NCBI GenBank assembly: GCA_017520935.1
Contig: JAFXEF010000045.1
Coordinates: 44,469-108,468 of the forward strand
Direction of reading: 5' to 3'
Source: Bacteroidaceae bacterium
GTDB lineage: Bacteria; Bacteroidota; Bacteroidia; Bacteroidales; Bacteroidaceae
DNA: 64,000 nucleotides
Below are positions 49,446 to 56,294 of this stretch, piece after piece. The first letter of the stretch is position 1. Each line of letters opens with the position of its first letter. The position numbers and the translations under genes were made by a program. The notes below the pieces were generated by a model. The model was not told the origin of the DNA, ran no database searches, and worked only from the letters and a program-made list of their open reading frames with translations.

Positions 49446-49498
49446 AATCTCTTGGGGAGAGATTAATCATAACTTACGCTTCGGTTTATCGTAAGTTA
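49446..49498 (+). terminator. Two consecutive hairpins after the MFS gene
   Basis: AATCTCT-TGGGG-AGAGATT lies at 49446-49464. TAACTTACG-(11 nt)-CGTAAGTTA lies at 49470-49498. Confidence 0.4.
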
Positions 49499-49620
49499 AG
49501 GCTACACCTGAGGCAACCTTCCCGAGCACCTGCTCCGATGCCGTACCGTACCTGCGGCATAATGTATGTATCGCCGGACAAACAGCCTTTGATGCAAAAA
49601 AACACCCTCACGAAGAAAAT

Positions 49621-49666
49621 TTTGTTTCTACGCGATGAAAATTTTGTTTTATCGCGTAGAAACAAA
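49621..49666. repeat. Perfect 16-bp inverted repeat TTTGTTTCTACGCGAT / ATCGCGTAGAAACAAA with 14-nt loop
   Basis: The arms are 49621-49636 and 49651-49666. The loop GAAAATTTTGTTTT repeats the 13 nt that precede the left arm's CTACGCGAT. Confidence 0.85.
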
Positions 49667-49826
49667 AATCGCCCCCACGGCAAGGGGAGAATCTGCTGCC
49701 GTGAACTGTCCGCGGACAAACGGTATTGGCCGGACAGCCATTGGTGAATATAAAGAAAAGCTATATCTTTGCCTATTGAGCCTTTTTTCAAGTTCATCAC
49801 TCCAAATGTCGGATGAACCAAAAATA

Positions 49827-49910
49827 AATCATAAGTTCAGATTAAGTAATCACAAGTTTTGATTACTTAATTATAAGTTGTGATTAAGTAATCATAAGTT
49901 ATGATTTGAC
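49827..49910. repeat. Stutter tract (GATTAAGTAATCAYAAGTT units) containing an 11-bp perfect inverted repeat
   Basis: ATTAAGTAATC (49841-49851) pairs with GATTACTTAAT (49861-49871). Direct copies of gattaagtaatca lie at about 49840 and 49882. Confidence 0.8.
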
Positions 49911-50060
49911 TTTACATCATAGTCGTTGTATATTTCCCCTAAAAGAACATCCCTCTTTTATATAACAGACGGCAGGTATATTATCACACGATGAAGGTTC
50001 TTCGGAAGATTGGAAACAATTTTCGCAATATAAGGCAAGATAAAAAAATAATCTTAAGTT

Positions 50061-50093
50061 TTTGTACATTATAAATAAAATTCACTACCTTTG
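50061..50093 (+). promoter_or_regulatory. Candidate promoter of the radical SAM operon (-33 TTTG, -7 TAccTTTG)
   Basis: TTTG is at 50061-50064 and TACCTTTG at 50086-50093, followed by CAACGG as at the methyltransferase promoter. Confidence 0.5.
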
Positions 50094-50503
50094 CAACGGA
50101 GAACCCACGCTGAGCCTTTTCGTATGGAAAGGGGGTTGGGGTGGGTATTCTTTGACATATTAAAGAAAGACGTTTACTTGACGTTTTGTCTTTGACTCTA
50201 CGGAATCTCGCAAATTCTATAAATCAGTCAAAAGCAAAGCAATGGTAGATGTCTGCGGGATATGTAATATACGTATGGCATATCGTGCGTGAGGATTCTG
50301 CGGGGCATCATTCGGTATACCCGTACCTTGGCCGTCATACTCTACATATCAGCGTGGGCTTCTGCGTTGCTCGTTTCGACTGATTGGGCAATGCGAGAGC
50401 CTCGTAGAGTGGGACGAGTAACAGGTACAGATTCCCACGTCTTTTTATTTTAAACATGAACCACTCGGTTCGGGGAGTCTACGAGTACATAGAGTACCGT
50501 ATT
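50094..50503 (+). ncRNA. Candidate structured 5' leader (cis-regulatory RNA) of unknown class
   Basis: Long-range complementarities: 50104-50113 with 50349-50358 (10 bp perfect); 50195-50202 with 50403-50410 (8 bp) plus 50207-50212 with 50392-50397 (6 bp); 50222-50229 with 50378-50385 (8 bp). No ORF of 60 or more codons. No known riboswitch signature recognised. Confidence 0.45.
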
Positions 50504-51097
50504 ATGACTTTTACGAGACATCTGATAGTAGGAGTTTCTATCTTATCGCTCATTATGAGTAGCTGCAACAAAGAAGATTTTGCTCCCAAACACCCACAAA
50601 CTCAATCGGCTACAATATCAGACTTACAGAAGGTATGGGTAGGTGAATATGAAGGCTGGGATTCGTTGATGAATGCCAAAATGAAAATCATGAGGCAGTT
50701 AGCTCTAAACCCGGATAGCACCTATACCAATGTGCTTGGTGCAGTAATAGATTTACCCAATGCAAGCAAAGAACCTGCTCCGATAGAAAAGGAGGCCGGA
50801 ACTTACGAAATCATTCTTGATGACAGTGCACAGACAGCCACCGTGTGCTTCACTGTGGCATATGATTCCATTATTGATTTTGGCACACAAGTATTCATGG
50901 GGTATGACCACAAACATTATAGGACCTCCGACGGTATAGAACATGAAGATACGATTTATCAACAATATTTTAGAATCTTGCGAGGCAAGGAGGGCTCATT
51001 TCAATTGGAGGCTACAGATTCCCTCATGTATTCGATTGACGGCAATGGTTTGCCAATAGTGTATCTTATGAATGTGGCAAGGATGAAACCTGAATAA
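50504..51097 (+). CDS. Lipoprotein, paralog 1
   Basis: It has the signal/lipobox LSLIMSSC from ATG 50504 (track start 50456 is less likely). It shares LQKVWVGEYEG...YTN...KE.GTY...YDS.ID motifs with the next gene. Confidence 0.65.
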   Translation: MTFTRHLIVGVSILSLIMSSCNKEDFAPKHPQTQSATISDLQKVWVGEYEGWDSLMNAKMKIMRQLALNPDSTYTNVLGAVIDLPNASKEPAPIEKEAGTYEIILDDSAQTATVCFTVAYDSIIDFGTQVFMGYDHKHYRTSDGIEHEDTIYQQYFRILRGKEGSFQLEATDSLMYSIDGNGLPIVYLMNVARMKPE

Positions 51098-51131
51098 CAA
51101 ATTCATTATTAACAAATAAAAAAGAATCATT

Positions 51132-51740
51132 ATGAAAAAGTATTTGTATTTCGCATCGATGTTTGCTCTGTGTTTAACTTTTAACGCCTGTTGCGAAGAA
51201 GATGATCCAGTTATTGATCCAGTTAATTCTGACGACCAAGTCGTGAAGACATTTGAGATTGACGAGGATTATATCCCTACCAAATCTGATATCCAAAAAA
51301 CTTGGGCCGGTAAATATGAAGGCAACGATGCAAAACAGGAAGCAAAAACAATGATCAAGCGCAAACTGACTTTAAATGCGAATGGAACGTACACCAATAT
51401 AATCGAAGGTATTTTAGTAAAGTCCAACGAAGAGATATACACACCGTTTGAGAAGGAGAAAGGTACATATCAATACAACAATGGTGTTATTACATATACC
51501 GTACAGTATGACTCCCTGATTGACTATCAGACACTTCACTATATCGGTTATACAAAAAAACACTACTATTCTGCTGATGGCAAGAACAGTAACGACAAGG
51601 CTAACTATACAGAAAATGCCATGTTCTCAGTACTAAAAAAAGGTCAAAGAAAGTGGATATCCAAAGATACCTATCTACAGCAACTTACAGATGAAGAACT
51701 TGATCTGTATTTTGAAATGGATGTTTATACAGAGGAATAG
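51132..51740 (+). CDS. Lipoprotein, paralog 2
   Basis: It has the signal/lipobox LTFNAC and is clearly alignable to 50504..51097. Confidence 0.65.
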   Translation: MKKYLYFASMFALCLTFNACCEEDDPVIDPVNSDDQVVKTFEIDEDYIPTKSDIQKTWAGKYEGNDAKQEAKTMIKRKLTLNANGTYTNIIEGILVKSNEEIYTPFEKEKGTYQYNNGVITYTVQYDSLIDYQTLHYIGYTKKHYYSADGKNSNDKANYTENAMFSVLKKGQRKWISKDTYLQQLTDEELDLYFEMDVYTEE

Positions 51741-51746
51741 TATTGT

Positions 51747-52766
51747 ATGAAGGATAGTGGTGAAATAAATTTCCTCCCGGCTTTGCGTCGGGGGGAGTTT
51801 GTACGCGAAGTGCTTTTATCTGCGCTGCAAGCAACAGGGGAAGCTCAGACACAATTGTTTGAGCTGGCACAGCAATGTCGTATTGAAAAATTCCCTGAGA
51901 ATCAAGTTCAAGTACGAAGCGTTATTGAAATTTCGAATGTTTGCCGTCAAAAATGCAAGTACTGTACAATTGGAGCTAATGACCAGAAATTCAATTATAC
52001 CCTTGACTGCAAAAGTATGGTGATGTTGATGGAATATCTCTATACCAAAGGACGGAGAAATATATTGCTTCAATCGGGAGAGAACCTTTCCAAGAAATTT
52101 ATTGACGATGTTGTTTCTGCTGTTGGGGAAATCAAATCTCAACATGCCGATTTACGCATCATCTTGTGTTTGGGTGATTTGTCAAAAACGGATTATCAGC
52201 GTTTGTACGATGCCGGCGCAACCGATTATGTGCTGAAATTTGAGACCTCAAATAAAGAGCTCTTTTCCTATTGCAAACCCAATGATTCACTGGAGCATCG
52301 TTTGCAGTGTGTCCGCACATTGGCAGAGATTGGCTATAGAGTGGGCTCTGGTAATATTATAGGTCTTCCTTCTCAGACTTTAGAGGATATAGTCGACGAT
52401 TTGATTTTGGTGCATGAGTTGCCACTTGCGATGAACAGTACCACTATATTTATACCCGCTGAAGGTTCAGCCTTTGAAAAGGAACCGGCAGGGAATCCTG
52501 TATATACTCTCAACATGATGGCATTGATGCGGATAATGAACCCCCATCGCCTGATGCCAACAACCAGTTCGTTAGAGAAGATGATTCATGATGGTCAATA
52601 TATAGGTTTGTTGGCAGGTGCCAATACGGTAACAATACATGATGGAACTCCAGAGGAGTTACAAGAGTATTTTCCCATTTATTCCTCAAAACGTGTACGT
52701 CCACAGATAGAGCATTTTAAAGACATACTCGAACGGGCAGGGTTAAGAACGGATAATTTATCATAG
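51747..52766 (+). CDS. Radical SAM enzyme, HydE/PylB/BioB-like
   Basis: VIEISNVCRQKCKYCTIGAND contains the CxxxCxxC motif in the context typical of HydE. IIGLPSQTLEDIVDDLILVHEL is also HydE-like. Confidence 0.75.
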   Translation: MKDSGEINFLPALRRGEFVREVLLSALQATGEAQTQLFELAQQCRIEKFPENQVQVRSVIEISNVCRQKCKYCTIGANDQKFNYTLDCKSMVMLMEYLYTKGRRNILLQSGENLSKKFIDDVVSAVGEIKSQHADLRIILCLGDLSKTDYQRLYDAGATDYVLKFETSNKELFSYCKPNDSLEHRLQCVRTLAEIGYRVGSGNIIGLPSQTLEDIVDDLILVHELPLAMNSTTIFIPAEGSAFEKEPAGNPVYTLNMMALMRIMNPHRLMPTTSSLEKMIHDGQYIGLLAGANTVTIHDGTPEELQEYFPIYSSKRVRPQIEHFKDILERAGLRTDNLS

Positions 52767-52779
52767 AATAATAGAATAT

Positions 52780-54201
52780 ATGAAAAGAGATTATAAAGAA
52801 TATATAGCATTATCAGACAATCGCTGGGCCGAATTCCAGGAGTTCCAGCGCTTAGGTCTCATTCCTACACATGGGGATTTCTCTCCAGCCGGCGTACATT
52901 ATCCTCCTATCACCAATTATCCTCCTATCGCACAAGAACTAGCATATCAAGGCTTTGAGGAATTAGAGCGGGGAGTTTTTGATGTATATGTTCATATCCC
53001 ATTCTGTCATAGACGTTGCCTTTTTTGCCACTACCCCTCTCATTATCATTGCAAAGATAGTGAGAAAGATGTTTATCTCGACCATCTGGAGAAAGAGATG
53101 AAGAATTGGTTGGCATTCAGGGGGTTGGAGAAGATAAAAAGCCGTAGTATTTTAATGGGAGGTGGTACTCCCACTGATTTGACTCCGGAACAGTTGAAAC
53201 GGTTCCTCACATTCTTTACAAAGTATGTAGACGTCAGTTCCTGTCCTCAGTTCAATTGGGATGTAGACCCCACGACTTTAGTCGGAGAAGATGGTTTGGA
53301 ACGTCTTCGCATTATCAAGGACTTTCAAGGCGACCGCTTGACTATCGGTGTTCAATCACTTAACGATGAAGTTCTAAAAAAGATGAACCGTTCGCATAAT
53401 GCAGCTACCGCCAAAGAGTCCATCGAGAACTGCTTGAAGATGGGGTTCAAGGTAAATATAGAATTCATATATGGTCATCCGGGCGAGACCTTAGAGAATT
53501 GGATAGACGTTATTGACGAGGCTTGTAATCTCGGAACAGATGAGATTCAACTTTATCGACTGAAAATCGAACCTTACGGAGATCAAGAAGGGACCATCAA
53601 GAGATTTGCGTCGTACAGAGAAAATGAATTGATTTCTGTTGAAGACACTATCCGCATGAAACAGATTAGTGACCAGATCCTTGAGGACTATGGTTACAAT
53701 GAGAATCTGCGTCGTGTATTTACACGAAACAAAAACAATATCTCCATATATGCTTATAACCAATGTTGTCGTTTGAAAGACCAAGTGGGGTTTGGACTTT
53801 CGGCATTCAGTAGCCTTAACGATCGTTTTATGATTAATACACCGGATTTCGATGAGTATTATCGTCGTACAGACGATGGGCTGATTGCTGCAAATAGATG
53901 CCTCATTCGAAACCGCGACCAGCAGATGCGTTGGTCAATTATCCTTCCTTTGAAAAACTATTATATTGACAAGAAACTTTTTAGGAAGATGAATGGGTTT
54001 GATGTCAATTCGGTATTTCAGGACAAGTTTGCACTGCTTAAAGAATATGGACTTGCGACAGAAAACGAGAGGGAAATCCGTCTTACTGACAAAGGAGCCT
54101 TTTACTCTGATGAACTCGTACATCTGTTTTATGAAGACCTGCATCAATCGTTCCCACCCGAGGAATTTAATCCGGGTATTCTTAACCCTTATAACAAATA
54201 G
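52780..54201 (+). CDS. Radical SAM enzyme, HemN-like / class C methyltransferase-like
   Basis: It has VYVHIPFCHRRCLFCHY (CxxxCxxC without the fourth HemN cysteine), GGGTPT and a HemN_C-like tail. Confidence 0.75.
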   Translation: MKRDYKEYIALSDNRWAEFQEFQRLGLIPTHGDFSPAGVHYPPITNYPPIAQELAYQGFEELERGVFDVYVHIPFCHRRCLFCHYPSHYHCKDSEKDVYLDHLEKEMKNWLAFRGLEKIKSRSILMGGGTPTDLTPEQLKRFLTFFTKYVDVSSCPQFNWDVDPTTLVGEDGLERLRIIKDFQGDRLTIGVQSLNDEVLKKMNRSHNAATAKESIENCLKMGFKVNIEFIYGHPGETLENWIDVIDEACNLGTDEIQLYRLKIEPYGDQEGTIKRFASYRENELISVEDTIRMKQISDQILEDYGYNENLRRVFTRNKNNISIYAYNQCCRLKDQVGFGLSAFSSLNDRFMINTPDFDEYYRRTDDGLIAANRCLIRNRDQQMRWSIILPLKNYYIDKKLFRKMNGFDVNSVFQDKFALLKEYGLATENEREIRLTDKGAFYSDELVHLFYEDLHQSFPPEEFNPGILNPYNK

Positions 54202-54212
54202 GAGAAGACTGT

Positions 54213-56294
54213 ATGAAACGATTCTGTTATTTGCTTTTTATCGTAACCTTGTCGGTTGTTATGCCAATTCGACTACAGGCACAATACCAGATAGCCATTA
54301 ACAATGCGTCTTCATTGGTACGGGTGGGTATGAATCCGCATCCGACAGATAGCTCTGACATCAGTATTGCATATACATTAATGAGCGCTATTGATCATGA
54401 GAATCTGGATTCTATGATAATAGTAAGAGACTACTACCAGCAGAAAGCAAAAGATGATGTACTCAAAGAAAAGGCGTGGGGAGCATTGGCCTACATTGTA
54501 AATCGGATGATTGCAGAACGAGGAAATGGTGAAGTAGAAAAAGGCGATCTTTTGACAGAGGATCTTTACGAATATTTTACAGCTAATGCGTGTGAGAATC
54601 TTAGAGACTATCTGGTATTGAAATATGAATTGAATAATTATCATCCACGTTCAGTAAAAGAGTATATTGACAAGCGTAACTTCTACGATGACATGTTGAT
54701 GTTCAATTCTCCGGATCGTGAAGATTGGGATATGACTTCGAAGATTATGAAACTGATGCCCATGAAAGAAGGTGATAAATTGGTTGATGTCGGATGCGGA
54801 TTCGGTTATAATAGTTATCGCTTTTTAGAACTTGTGGGAACCACTGGTAAAGTTTATGCAACAGATACAGAAAAGGCATATACTGACTATTTCGGTAACC
54901 TGATGAAGCAAAATGGTATAACGAACATTGAGGTAATCAACTCCACGAGTTCACACCTCGGAGTTAATGATCAGGTTGATTGTATATTTATGAGTTCGCT
55001 CTATCATGTTTTTTATACGTGGTCAAGGGAGGATGAACGTAACCCTTACCTGTCTTCAATAAAAGACCACTTGAAACCTGATGGAAAGATTGTGATAGTT
55101 GACAACATTAATCTTCATGGCAACGAACTGAACAATTGCCATGTAAGTCCAGAACTTATACAAGCACAATTGGGGTATTGGGGGTTCGAGCCAATAATGT
55201 ATAAGGAATTGAATGATAAAAGATTCATGCTTGTATTGAAACGTAACGATTCTTATAAACCTCATAAGAAAGAACGAACAAGGAAGGGAGTTCCTATACT
55301 GACAATTGACAATCAGAAATCCGTTGTTCATATAGGTAGCCTTGACTCTTACGACATTACAGACCGTGGTATTGATGCTGCCAGTTACGTTTATGATTTC
55401 ATACATAATGGTGACAAGAACTTTGCAGACATTGCTATAAAGAAGTATACAGAACTTATACCTTCCGAGAACTTTGGTGGTGAGTATTCTGCCCTTCAAT
55501 GGCTATGCGAGGCTATGACAGCAGATGAAGTACAGCGTGAAAGAATGTTACAAGACCCTTTGACGAGGAGTTTTTATCATAAGATGACTGATGATAGCTG
55601 CAAGGTTCTGAGTTACTATCTGCTCCATAAATATAAGTTAGGCAATGATTCTCTCCGTATGCTTTCTGACTCAATCCTGGAAAAAACGGGAGAAGTAGGT
55701 CGTACGCACCGTTCGTATCTTGAAGATTATATTTTGGCCTTGAATCCAAGGCGTCCTCTATGGGAGCACACTTCAGACATTATTGATAACCTTGGACTTA
55801 AATATGGCGAGACTATAGCAGATATTGGTTGCGGATCAGGTTTCTTTACGTATAGATTCTCCAATATGGTCGGCTCTGAAGGAAAGGTCTATGCAATAGA
55901 ATTGAAAGATGAGCATCTACAAACACTTCAGCACTTCTTGGATAAGGAACATATCAATAATGTGGAAACGATGAAGGGGCGTGAAGACATCATAGAACTT
56001 CCCGAGAAGGTGAACAAGATGTTTATGTGTTCACTTTATCATGTACTGTATGGTGTGATTCCAGACAATGACCGCGATACATACTTGAAATCTTTATGTA
56101 AATACCTGAAACCAGGGGGTGAACTTATCATTATTGACAATGGTCCCGTTGATGACGATACGCTTCCCTATCATGGTCCATACATAGCTCGCGAATTGAT
56201 CGAGTATCAGTTATCTTATTACGGCTTTGAACTCGTAGATTACAAGCAGATCATACCTCAACGTTATATGTTGAAATTCAGGTTGGAAAAATAA
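54213..56294 (+). CDS. Exported protein with two tandem class I SAM-methyltransferase-like domains
   Basis: The signal peptide is MKRFCYLLFIVTLSVVMPIRLQA. Two motif I copies are present (LVDVGCGFGYNSYRF and IADIGCGSGFFTYRF), each preceded by a helical region and followed by KP(D/G)G..(I/V)I(V/I)DN. Confidence 0.7.
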   Translation: MKRFCYLLFIVTLSVVMPIRLQAQYQIAINNASSLVRVGMNPHPTDSSDISIAYTLMSAIDHENLDSMIIVRDYYQQKAKDDVLKEKAWGALAYIVNRMIAERGNGEVEKGDLLTEDLYEYFTANACENLRDYLVLKYELNNYHPRSVKEYIDKRNFYDDMLMFNSPDREDWDMTSKIMKLMPMKEGDKLVDVGCGFGYNSYRFLELVGTTGKVYATDTEKAYTDYFGNLMKQNGITNIEVINSTSSHLGVNDQVDCIFMSSLYHVFYTWSREDERNPYLSSIKDHLKPDGKIVIVDNINLHGNELNNCHVSPELIQAQLGYWGFEPIMYKELNDKRFMLVLKRNDSYKPHKKERTRKGVPILTIDNQKSVVHIGSLDSYDITDRGIDAASYVYDFIHNGDKNFADIAIKKYTELIPSENFGGEYSALQWLCEAMTADEVQRERMLQDPLTRSFYHKMTDDSCKVLSYYLLHKYKLGNDSLRMLSDSILEKTGEVGRTHRSYLEDYILALNPRRPLWEHTSDIIDNLGLKYGETIADIGCGSGFFTYRFSNMVGSEGKVYAIELKDEHLQTLQHFLDKEHINNVETMKGREDIIELPEKVNKMFMCSLYHVLYGVIPDNDRDTYLKSLCKYLKPGGELIIIDNGPVDDDTLPYHGPYIARELIEYQLSYYGFELVDYKQIIPQRYMLKFRLEK

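Follow-up and report, generated by a model that had tools for sequence, protein, structure and literature searches.

What occupies the 410 nucleotides (nt) that separate a promoter from the first credible start codon of an operon encoding lipoproteins and radical S-adenosylmethionine (rSAM) enzymes in a Bacteroidaceae bacterium? The window, a stretch of 64,000 nt from assembly GCA_017520935.1 (contig JAFXEF010000045.1, positions 44,469 to 108,468), holds this region at 50094-50503 (window coordinates, + strand, here and below). As the original prediction had stated, it contains no open reading frame (ORF) of 60 or more codons, the longest encoding 54 amino acids (aa). We find that the RNA read from it has two mutually exclusive folds, both of which are maintained by compensatory changes among related copies. 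We consider it probable that the region is the transcribed leader of the operon, that it is one instance of a portable module, promoter plus leader, found in gut Bacteroidales, and that it acts as a bistable transcription attenuator.

The Bacteroidota-type promoter proposed at 50061-50093 is indeed present, with a -33 box TTTG at 50061-64 and a -7 box TACCTTTG at 50086-93. It is one of six TTTG-N21-TACCTTTG sites that a pattern scan returns in the 64 kb, against 1.6 expected. A TAnnTTTG motif is aligned at the same position ahead of all 30 aligned copies of the element, and ahead of most of the wider set. Transcription is predicted to start a few nt past the -7 box, around 50098-50101. The ATG at 50504, the credible start, opens a lipoprotein signal peptide (MTFTRHLIVGVSILSLIMSSC), and the pattern scan of the window reveals no promoter motif between it and a U-tract (TCTTTTTATTTT, 50440-51) that lies 52 nt upstream. 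A leader of about 405 nt is exceptional, since the median 5' untranslated region of Bacteroides thetaiotaomicron measures 32 nt (PMC7366714).

The minimum free energy (MFE) of the 410-nt stretch is -149.2 kcal/mol, compared with -114.2 +/- 5.3 kcal/mol for dinucleotide shuffles (z -6.63), and none of 100 shuffles folds as well. The reverse complement reaches -110.9 kcal/mol (z -3.1), an asymmetry of 38 kcal/mol between the strands. The structure is therefore real, and it belongs to the + strand, which is the sense strand of the operon.

This structure recurs in a dispersed repeat family, which was absent from the original prediction. A BLAST search of the region against its own genome (2.9 Mb, 87% complete) yields about 12 further loci, and R1, a covariance model of the 3' domain built on 30 copies, finds 12 strong copies (86 to 125 bits, the window copy scoring 125) and 4 weaker ones. 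Copies are carried by 25 of 30 congeneric species, with up to 12 matching pieces each, and by 17 of 150 genera sampled elsewhere in the order, with 1 to 8 copies each. One copy lies on plasmids of Phocaeicola dorei and P. vulgatus; on plasmid NZ_CP072250.1 of P. dorei CL06T03C03 it lies at 54077-54185 and scores 76 bits with R1. The 1-kb gap that holds this copy has no annotation, and a co-oriented hypothetical coding sequence begins 62 nt downstream of it. The window copy has the conserved elements of both domains: in the 3' domain GGCGTGGG, GTTGCT, GGCAATGCGARRGCC and CCCACG followed by the U-tract, which form a long hairpin, and in the 5' domain the hairpin P2 with its TTTACTTG loop, GAAYYTCGCAA and GCAACGGTAGATG, in an arm that pairs with the 3' arm. 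A congener copy that is 92% identical has the same variable boxes between flanks that are unrelated on both sides, while a copy that is 83% identical retains the upstream MFS gene and has another downstream gene. Partial matches of 75 to 88% to the 3' half of the leader were also noted in two unannotated 'Bacteriophage sp.' contigs from human faeces, MT839469.1 (1477-1586) and MT836080.1 (1-49).

The first of the two folds is a long rod, in which a 5' arm (50188-50249) pairs with a 3' arm (50361-50410). RNAalifold, applied to 30 full-length copies, joins the two arms by 55 pairs, 29 of which show double changes. When 49 pairs of the rod are scored, including the helix that closes the central domain (GATATGTA 50259-66 with TACATATC 50343-50), 93.8% of 1447 cells are paired, versus 35 to 47% when the partner is slid; double changes affect 26 of these pairs, and none of 500 shuffles reaches any of these measures. 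Two box pairs, TCTACGG 50197-203 with 50402-08 (within the variable box TCGTAGAGT, 50402-10) and AATCAG 50222-27 with CTGATT 50380-85, differ in every copy with their complementarity kept. In two other genomes, the leaders ahead of orthologous rSAM operons also keep the rod, with the variable boxes fully compensated. Several helices that had been read by eye in the window turn out to be parts of this covarying rod, and each is a perfect complement: ACTCTACG 50195-202 with CGTAGAGT 50403-10, CTCGCA 50207-12 with TGCGAG 50392-97 (in the box TGCGAGA, 50392-98), and AATCAGTC 50222-29 with GACTGATT 50378-85. The central domain that the rod encloses (50250-50348) has another length and another sequence in each copy, and its closing helix is 86% paired. 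A local hairpin had been proposed there between GATATG 50259-64 and CATATC 50279-84; the two are exact complements, but the pairing is less likely than that of the same 5' strand with 50343-50. The hexamer TCTGCG does occur three times, at 50252, 50297 and 50361, but is not a feature of the family.

The second fold splits the rod. The 5' arm folds on itself into P3 (50188-96 with 50227-35, 86% paired) and P4 (loop CTCGCAA 50207-13, 83% paired), with 8 pairs compensated, and this local hairpin is the MFE structure of the nascent RNA up to 50250. The 3' arm turns to the sequence that follows it and forms hairpin L, in which CGTGGG 50353-58 pairs with CCCACG 50434-39 and GTTGCTCGTTT 50366-76 with GGGACGAGTAAC 50411-22. 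Its 17 pairs abut the U-tract, and the two together make up an intrinsic-terminator module (50353-50451) that had not been listed before. Hairpin L is 99.6% paired within the genus and 94.1% paired, with 8 compensated pairs, in 23 sequences that represent about 17 genera and the plasmid; folded alone, it reaches -39.9 kcal/mol. The U-tract follows it in 29 of 30 copies, and we infer from this arrangement that transcription would terminate there. One leader copy of the same genome (G000:C21:2004-2113, locus L033), ahead of an ATPase_2/DUF234 gene, retains the rest of the module but no longer has the U-tract (CGCTTGAACC), and represents a natural terminator-less variant.

The two folds compete for the same nucleotides. 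Strand 50366-76 has either 50232-45 (rod) or 50411-22 (terminator) as its partner, and both pairings are compensated. More generally, strands with two alternative partners are nearly invariant, whereas those that pair only in the rod are hypervariable, which is the pattern that a genuine switch predicts. A further helix joins S1 (CCCACGCTGA, 50104-50113), a pyrimidine-rich box near the 5' end, to S2 (TCAGCGTGGG, 50349-50358), itself a shared strand that pairs with S1 or with S3 in the terminator fold. These two perfect complements, noticed at the outset, form all 10 pairs in 22 of 30 copies, always with the same offset, and one subfamily replaces CGCTGA/TCAGCG by CGCCGA/TCGGCG, a clean swap between C-G and U-A. 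The helix crosses the rod, in agreement with the original prediction, which had proposed a pseudoknot or a pair of alternative folds. The alternative folds are genuine, both being conserved. Since S2 lies in an internal loop near the apex in the rod state, a pseudoknot there is geometrically conceivable as well. In homologous loci the rod helices covary heavily, and S1:S2 shows the swap between subfamilies.

Could such a family consist of repeats that act only as DNA, comparable to miniature inverted-repeat transposable elements (MITEs) or REP palindromes, the helices being mere inverted repeats? The copies are dispersed and numerous, their flanks are exchangeable, and other dispersed repeats (49463-49790 and 49820-49970) form a mosaic in the intergenic region upstream. 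But copies of the family always have the same orientation with respect to the gene that follows, unlike the neighbouring repeats, which are found in both orientations. The arms change by compensation and not by identity, under three-way pairing constraints; the rod holds many conserved G-U pairs, the strands fold with the 38 kcal/mol asymmetry given above, and each copy comes with a promoter and a U-tract. A DNA repeat devoid of RNA function is therefore very improbable.

The neighbouring repeats deserve a description of their own. The one at 49463-49790 recurs in the genome as 20 or more copies of 74 to 86% identity, some in one orientation and some in the other; some of these sit 200 to 350 nt upstream of other leader copies, and most do not. 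It contains, at 49611-49667, a 22-nt tandem duplication that gives rise to an inverted repeat of 21 nt with 95% complementarity (TTTTGTTTCTACGCGATGAAA/TTTTATCGCGTAGAAACAAAA), and a minus-strand ORF of 111 aa (49486-49821) that has no Pfam or NCBIfam match and is probably spurious. The second, at 49813-49970, is a palindromic element of three 21-nt units (AATCAYAAGTTNTGATTAAGT-like) with inverted arms of 53 nt; it is found at 9 genome loci at least, in both orientations, and the leader promoter follows it after about 130 nt. It may serve as an array of protein-binding sites or represent a small mobile repeat.

How might the two folds control the operon? In the rod state, the 5' arm would pair over its full length with the 3' arm, and S1 could dock on S2, which is located at the apex of the rod. 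This would sequester the 5' strand of the terminator, and RNA polymerase would read on into the operon. In the split state, the 5' arm would fold on itself and the 3' arm would find its partner in the 30 nt that follow; combined with S2:S3, this pairing would create the hairpin of -40 kcal/mol ahead of the U-tract, and transcription would stop 52 nt short of the ATG. Expression of the operon would be set by the balance between the folds.

Folding energies indicate how close this balance may be. The rod is present in the MFE structure of the promoter-to-U-tract RNA in all 30 copies, and forcing hairpin L costs 3.7 to 24.9 kcal/mol out of about -130. Snapshots of the nascent chain, taken for the window copy, pass from the local 5' hairpin (by 50250) to S1:S2 (by 50375), to the rod (50400-15), and then to near-degenerate split states (50430-41). 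Taken together, these results suggest that the RNA is finely balanced, and that the state met at the U-tract depends on kinetics or on a factor.

Several observations weigh against an attenuator. Thermodynamics favour the rod in every copy, and S3 is synthesised only after the strands of the rod, so that folding order alone could make constitutive read-through the default state. A small nested hairpin (50409-39, 93% paired, -10.8 kcal/mol) can precede the U-tract even with the rod formed, and the rod may therefore not fully prevent termination. A simple terminator scanner makes no call at the hairpin, the loop of which exceeds the limit of the scanner. Because the copies are related, fewer independent events underlie the covariation than the counts of double changes suggest. 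Start site, read-through and the 3' end at the U-tract are all predictions from sequence. As for the input, no leader peptide is conserved (from the conserved ATG at 50249 the reading frames divide 12/8/6 and the ORFs measure 4 to 75 aa), the Rfam 15 models detect no known aptamer in the window, and no linked regulator gene was found beside the copies.

If conditional termination is put aside, the leader might be an element of mRNA stability or processing, with a 5' structure that protects the transcript or directs its cleavage. The 5' structure is certainly very stable, and a conserved box past the terminator could join a rearrangement at the mRNA level. Such a role leaves unexplained why a compensated, G/C-rich hairpin stands exactly at the U-tract in 29 of 30 copies, and why the RNA has two mutually exclusive folds. 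We regard it as quite improbable.

This post-terminator purine box (GGTTCGGGGAGTCTACGAG, 50467-85) is conserved in most copies, with a GGRGA motif 20 to 45 nt past the U-tract. It had been suggested that CTCGTAGA 50401-08 can also pair with TCTACGAG 50478-85, near the start codon; the complementarity is exact in the window, but across the family the pairing is formed at 57% and is not compensated. The box shifts together with S3 by subfamily (TTCCC/GGGGA, TTCTC/GAGAA, GGCTTC/GAAGCC), with weak support per sequence, and could find a partner in the pyrimidine strand of S3 once the RNA reads through.

Which genes, then, would be controlled? In the window, the operon (50504-56294) begins with a lipoprotein gene of 197 aa (50504-51097), 52 nt past the U-tract, and encodes two paralogous lipoproteins, a HydE/BioB-like and a HemN/HutW-like rSAM protein, and a tandem methyltransferase of 693 aa. 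Every NCBIfam match is below the equivalog cut-off, and no product is assigned. The original prediction implied a specific tie between the leader and this operon, which did not hold: the same leader precedes unrelated genes, and the 92% identical copy has other genes on both sides. Guesses of ligands such as S-adenosylmethionine or heme fall with it. Behind other copies we find signal-peptide and lipoprotein genes, a subtilase, a leucine-rich repeat protein, an archaeal-type ATPase, sigma-70 region-4 proteins and, in one case, a double-zinc-ribbon/FHA protein with a Ser/Thr kinase; functionally, these genes are unrelated. The congener copies nearest to the window subtype (L010, L012, L015 and L016) precede Sigma-70 region 4 proteins, L012 above the Pfam cut-off and L015 marginally; small ORFs that follow these sigma-like genes resemble anti-sigma factors, by N-terminal sequence only.

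Homologous rSAM genes (49 to 73% identity) were found in Bacteroidales, Ignavibacteriales, Verrucomicrobia, Kiritimatiellae and Acidobacteriota metagenome-assembled genomes (MAGs), and in MAGs labelled Lachnospiraceae. The homologous rSAM operons of two other Bacteroidales MAGs have a leader copy of their own. Conserved synteny as a rule was rejected: a leader lies within 4 kb in only 2 of the 14 homologous loci fetched, and the nearest homologues of the leader have other neighbours.

What the copies do share is their position. Those of the same genome for which downstream sequence is assembled all face a co-oriented ORF, which in most cases starts 35 to 120 nt away (the copy on contig C50 abuts the contig end and was left out). 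Among the copies of other genera, 20 of 21 have a co-oriented ORF that starts 11 to 198 nt past the U-tract. This geometry bears on another explanation, in which the terminated RNA of about 350 nt is itself the product, a multicopy non-coding RNA that acts in trans as a small RNA (sRNA), protein sponge or scaffold, expression of the downstream gene being incidental read-through. The element has its own promoter and terminator, it is a portable module (its 92% identical copy has unrelated flanks), and multicopy sRNA families are known in Bacteroides (FopS, PMC11697453). In the consensus fold, moreover, the A-rich strand of P2 (50167-72) is paired with the CGUCUUU tail of the terminator instead, which would close the rod and protect the 3' end. 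Against this, co-orientation is strict and the distance to the ORF short, both in all assembled copies of the genome and in 20 of 21 distant ones; there is no promoter motif between the U-tract and the ATG; the conserved box extends past the terminator; and a conserved alternative fold has no obvious role in an RNA that acts purely in trans. We hold such a stand-alone RNA to be unlikely.

If the leader is an attenuator, what does it sense? Because the downstream genes share no pathway, a general input is favoured over a pathway metabolite. The balance would then be set by the kinetics of elongation and pausing, or by a protein or RNA acting in trans. A leader peptide encoded by an upstream ORF from ATG 50249 was rejected, as its frame relative to S2 is not kept across copies. 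A pairing between the P2 loop GUUUACUUG and CGAGUAAC was also rejected, by eye in the alignment, where the loop stays constant when the partner becomes GATAAGC.

Alternatively, a conserved pocket could bind an ion or small molecule as the signal of a global state, for instance a nucleotide second messenger or Mg2+, and so tip the balance between rod and terminator. Many loop and junction nt are nearly invariant (the TTTACTTG loop, GACAT, GGTAGATG, GGGCAATGCGA, ACAGGTACAG), a pattern typical of RNAs with tertiary structure, and an expression platform of the terminator/antiterminator type is present. Riboswitches for global signals are known to precede heterogeneous genes in many copies, as in the c-di-GMP-I class, which counts in favour of such a sensor. 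On the other side, the downstream genes have no common pathway, the context yields no ligand candidate, and the need for strands to fit two partners accounts for much of the conservation. The initial reading recognised no known riboswitch class, and Rfam 15 agrees, with no match in the whole window at the gathering score and none within 50094-50503 at E-values up to 10; in E-value mode, the segment 49800-50700 gave matches only at 49807-49935, which are spurious. A riboswitch is, in our opinion, rather improbable.

The remaining parts of the leader can be placed around the two folds. Downstream of S1, of which the CCCAC may also pair with the nearby G-box according to the MFE structure, a variable 5' hairpin CCTTTTC...GAAAGGG is predicted at 50115-33; its sequence changes in other copies with pairing kept (CCTTAATTC...GGATTAAGG). 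It is followed by the conserved G-rich box (50134-45), in which GGGYGGGG is nearly invariant in the 30-copy alignment, and by P2 (50167-87), a stem AAGACG/CGTTTT that is 95.4% paired, with a swap from G-C to A-U at one pair. The P2 loop TTTACTTGA is nearly invariant and conserved across genera.

The leader would work like a classical attenuator, yet it fits no described family. As in trp- or pyr-type attenuators, T-boxes and transcriptional riboswitches, it lies between a promoter and the first gene and ends in a terminator hairpin with a U-tract, and one strand (50353-76) pairs either upstream, as an antiterminator, or downstream, as a terminator, both pairings being compensated. In contrast to these systems, it has no leader peptide, tRNA-binding specifier, known aptamer or known protein site; its antiterminator is a rod of about 50 bp that spans a variable insert of about 100 nt; it has an additional crossing helix, S1:S2, and a conserved post-terminator box; and it occurs in 12 to 16 copies per genome ahead of unrelated accessory genes. 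We found no description of the family in the literature searched, including by motif sequence, although coverage was incomplete, so that absence is not proven.

Capsular polysaccharide operons of Bacteroides offer a related setting. Their leaders carry opsX pause sites that are read by UpxY proteins, which are NusG paralogues, and they too stand ahead of accessory surface loci in Bacteroidales and have a premature termination that is overcome (PMC11685472). The nearly invariant ATGCGAAGG/ATGCGAGAG in the 3' arm matches the opsE sequence CTGCGAAGCATA of B. fragilis (PMC11685472) at 7 of 8 nt, a resemblance that is a lead only. The published ops elements follow a short pause hairpin, in contrast to the 300-nt rod seen here (PMC11685472), and the genes behind the copies that we examined include neither upxY or upxZ nor a NusG domain. 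The sole NusG-domain match in the genome is an UpxY-like paralogue of about 183 aa (G000:C17:44192-44747) with a TACCTTTG promoter and a short leader; this leader lacks the element, and a link to UpxY was not retained. The housekeeping nusG was not found in this genome, probably because the assembly is incomplete.

Two other comparisons can be made. HK022 put and the Bacillus EAR element are also structured leader RNAs of accessory or surface-polymer operons that affect read-through of terminators, but they modify RNA polymerase so that it ignores downstream terminators and hold no terminator of their own, and the leader has no sequence or Rfam similarity to either. The FopS/GibS sRNAs are likewise a family of Bacteroidaceae RNAs with several members per genome, as many as 15 in some (PMC11697453). 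FopS consists of a single-stranded seed and a simple terminator hairpin, is mostly intergenic or antisense, and is in Rfam (PMC11697453), whereas the element described here measures about 350 to 400 nt, has another architecture, always stands in a 5' leader position and has no Rfam match in the window, on which grounds identity with FopS/GibS was rejected.

A bolder proposal, which we put forward as possible but doubtful, is that the family represents a novel class of regulatory leaders of large size (about 350 nt) through which one global input co-ordinates a dozen or more accessory operons per genome across gut Bacteroidales, for surface, secretion, sigma-factor and defence functions. This input would be a small-molecule signal or a dedicated protein, of the RNA-binding or antitermination kind. 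Within this proposal, the variable boxes, specific to each copy and perfectly paired, could be address codes that keep the 12 to 16 leaders orthogonal, or could let terminated leaders act in trans on chosen copies. Either arrangement would amount to an RNA counterpart of the UpxY/UpxZ hierarchy.

To our knowledge, gut Bacteroidales have neither Hfq nor ProQ, and few RNA-based controls are known in them. The family explains many long 'empty' intergenic regions in the annotation of Bacteroidales genomes. Since its two folds and competing strands are mapped to the nucleotide, the leader is also a well-defined object with which a new antitermination factor or ligand could be found. The module precedes variable genes that determine the niche of these bacteria, namely those for surface lipoproteins, secreted enzymes and sigma factors, and rSAM operons that resemble natural-product clusters. 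If the proposed attenuation is true, it would constitute a major and so far unrecognised layer of control over accessory gene expression.

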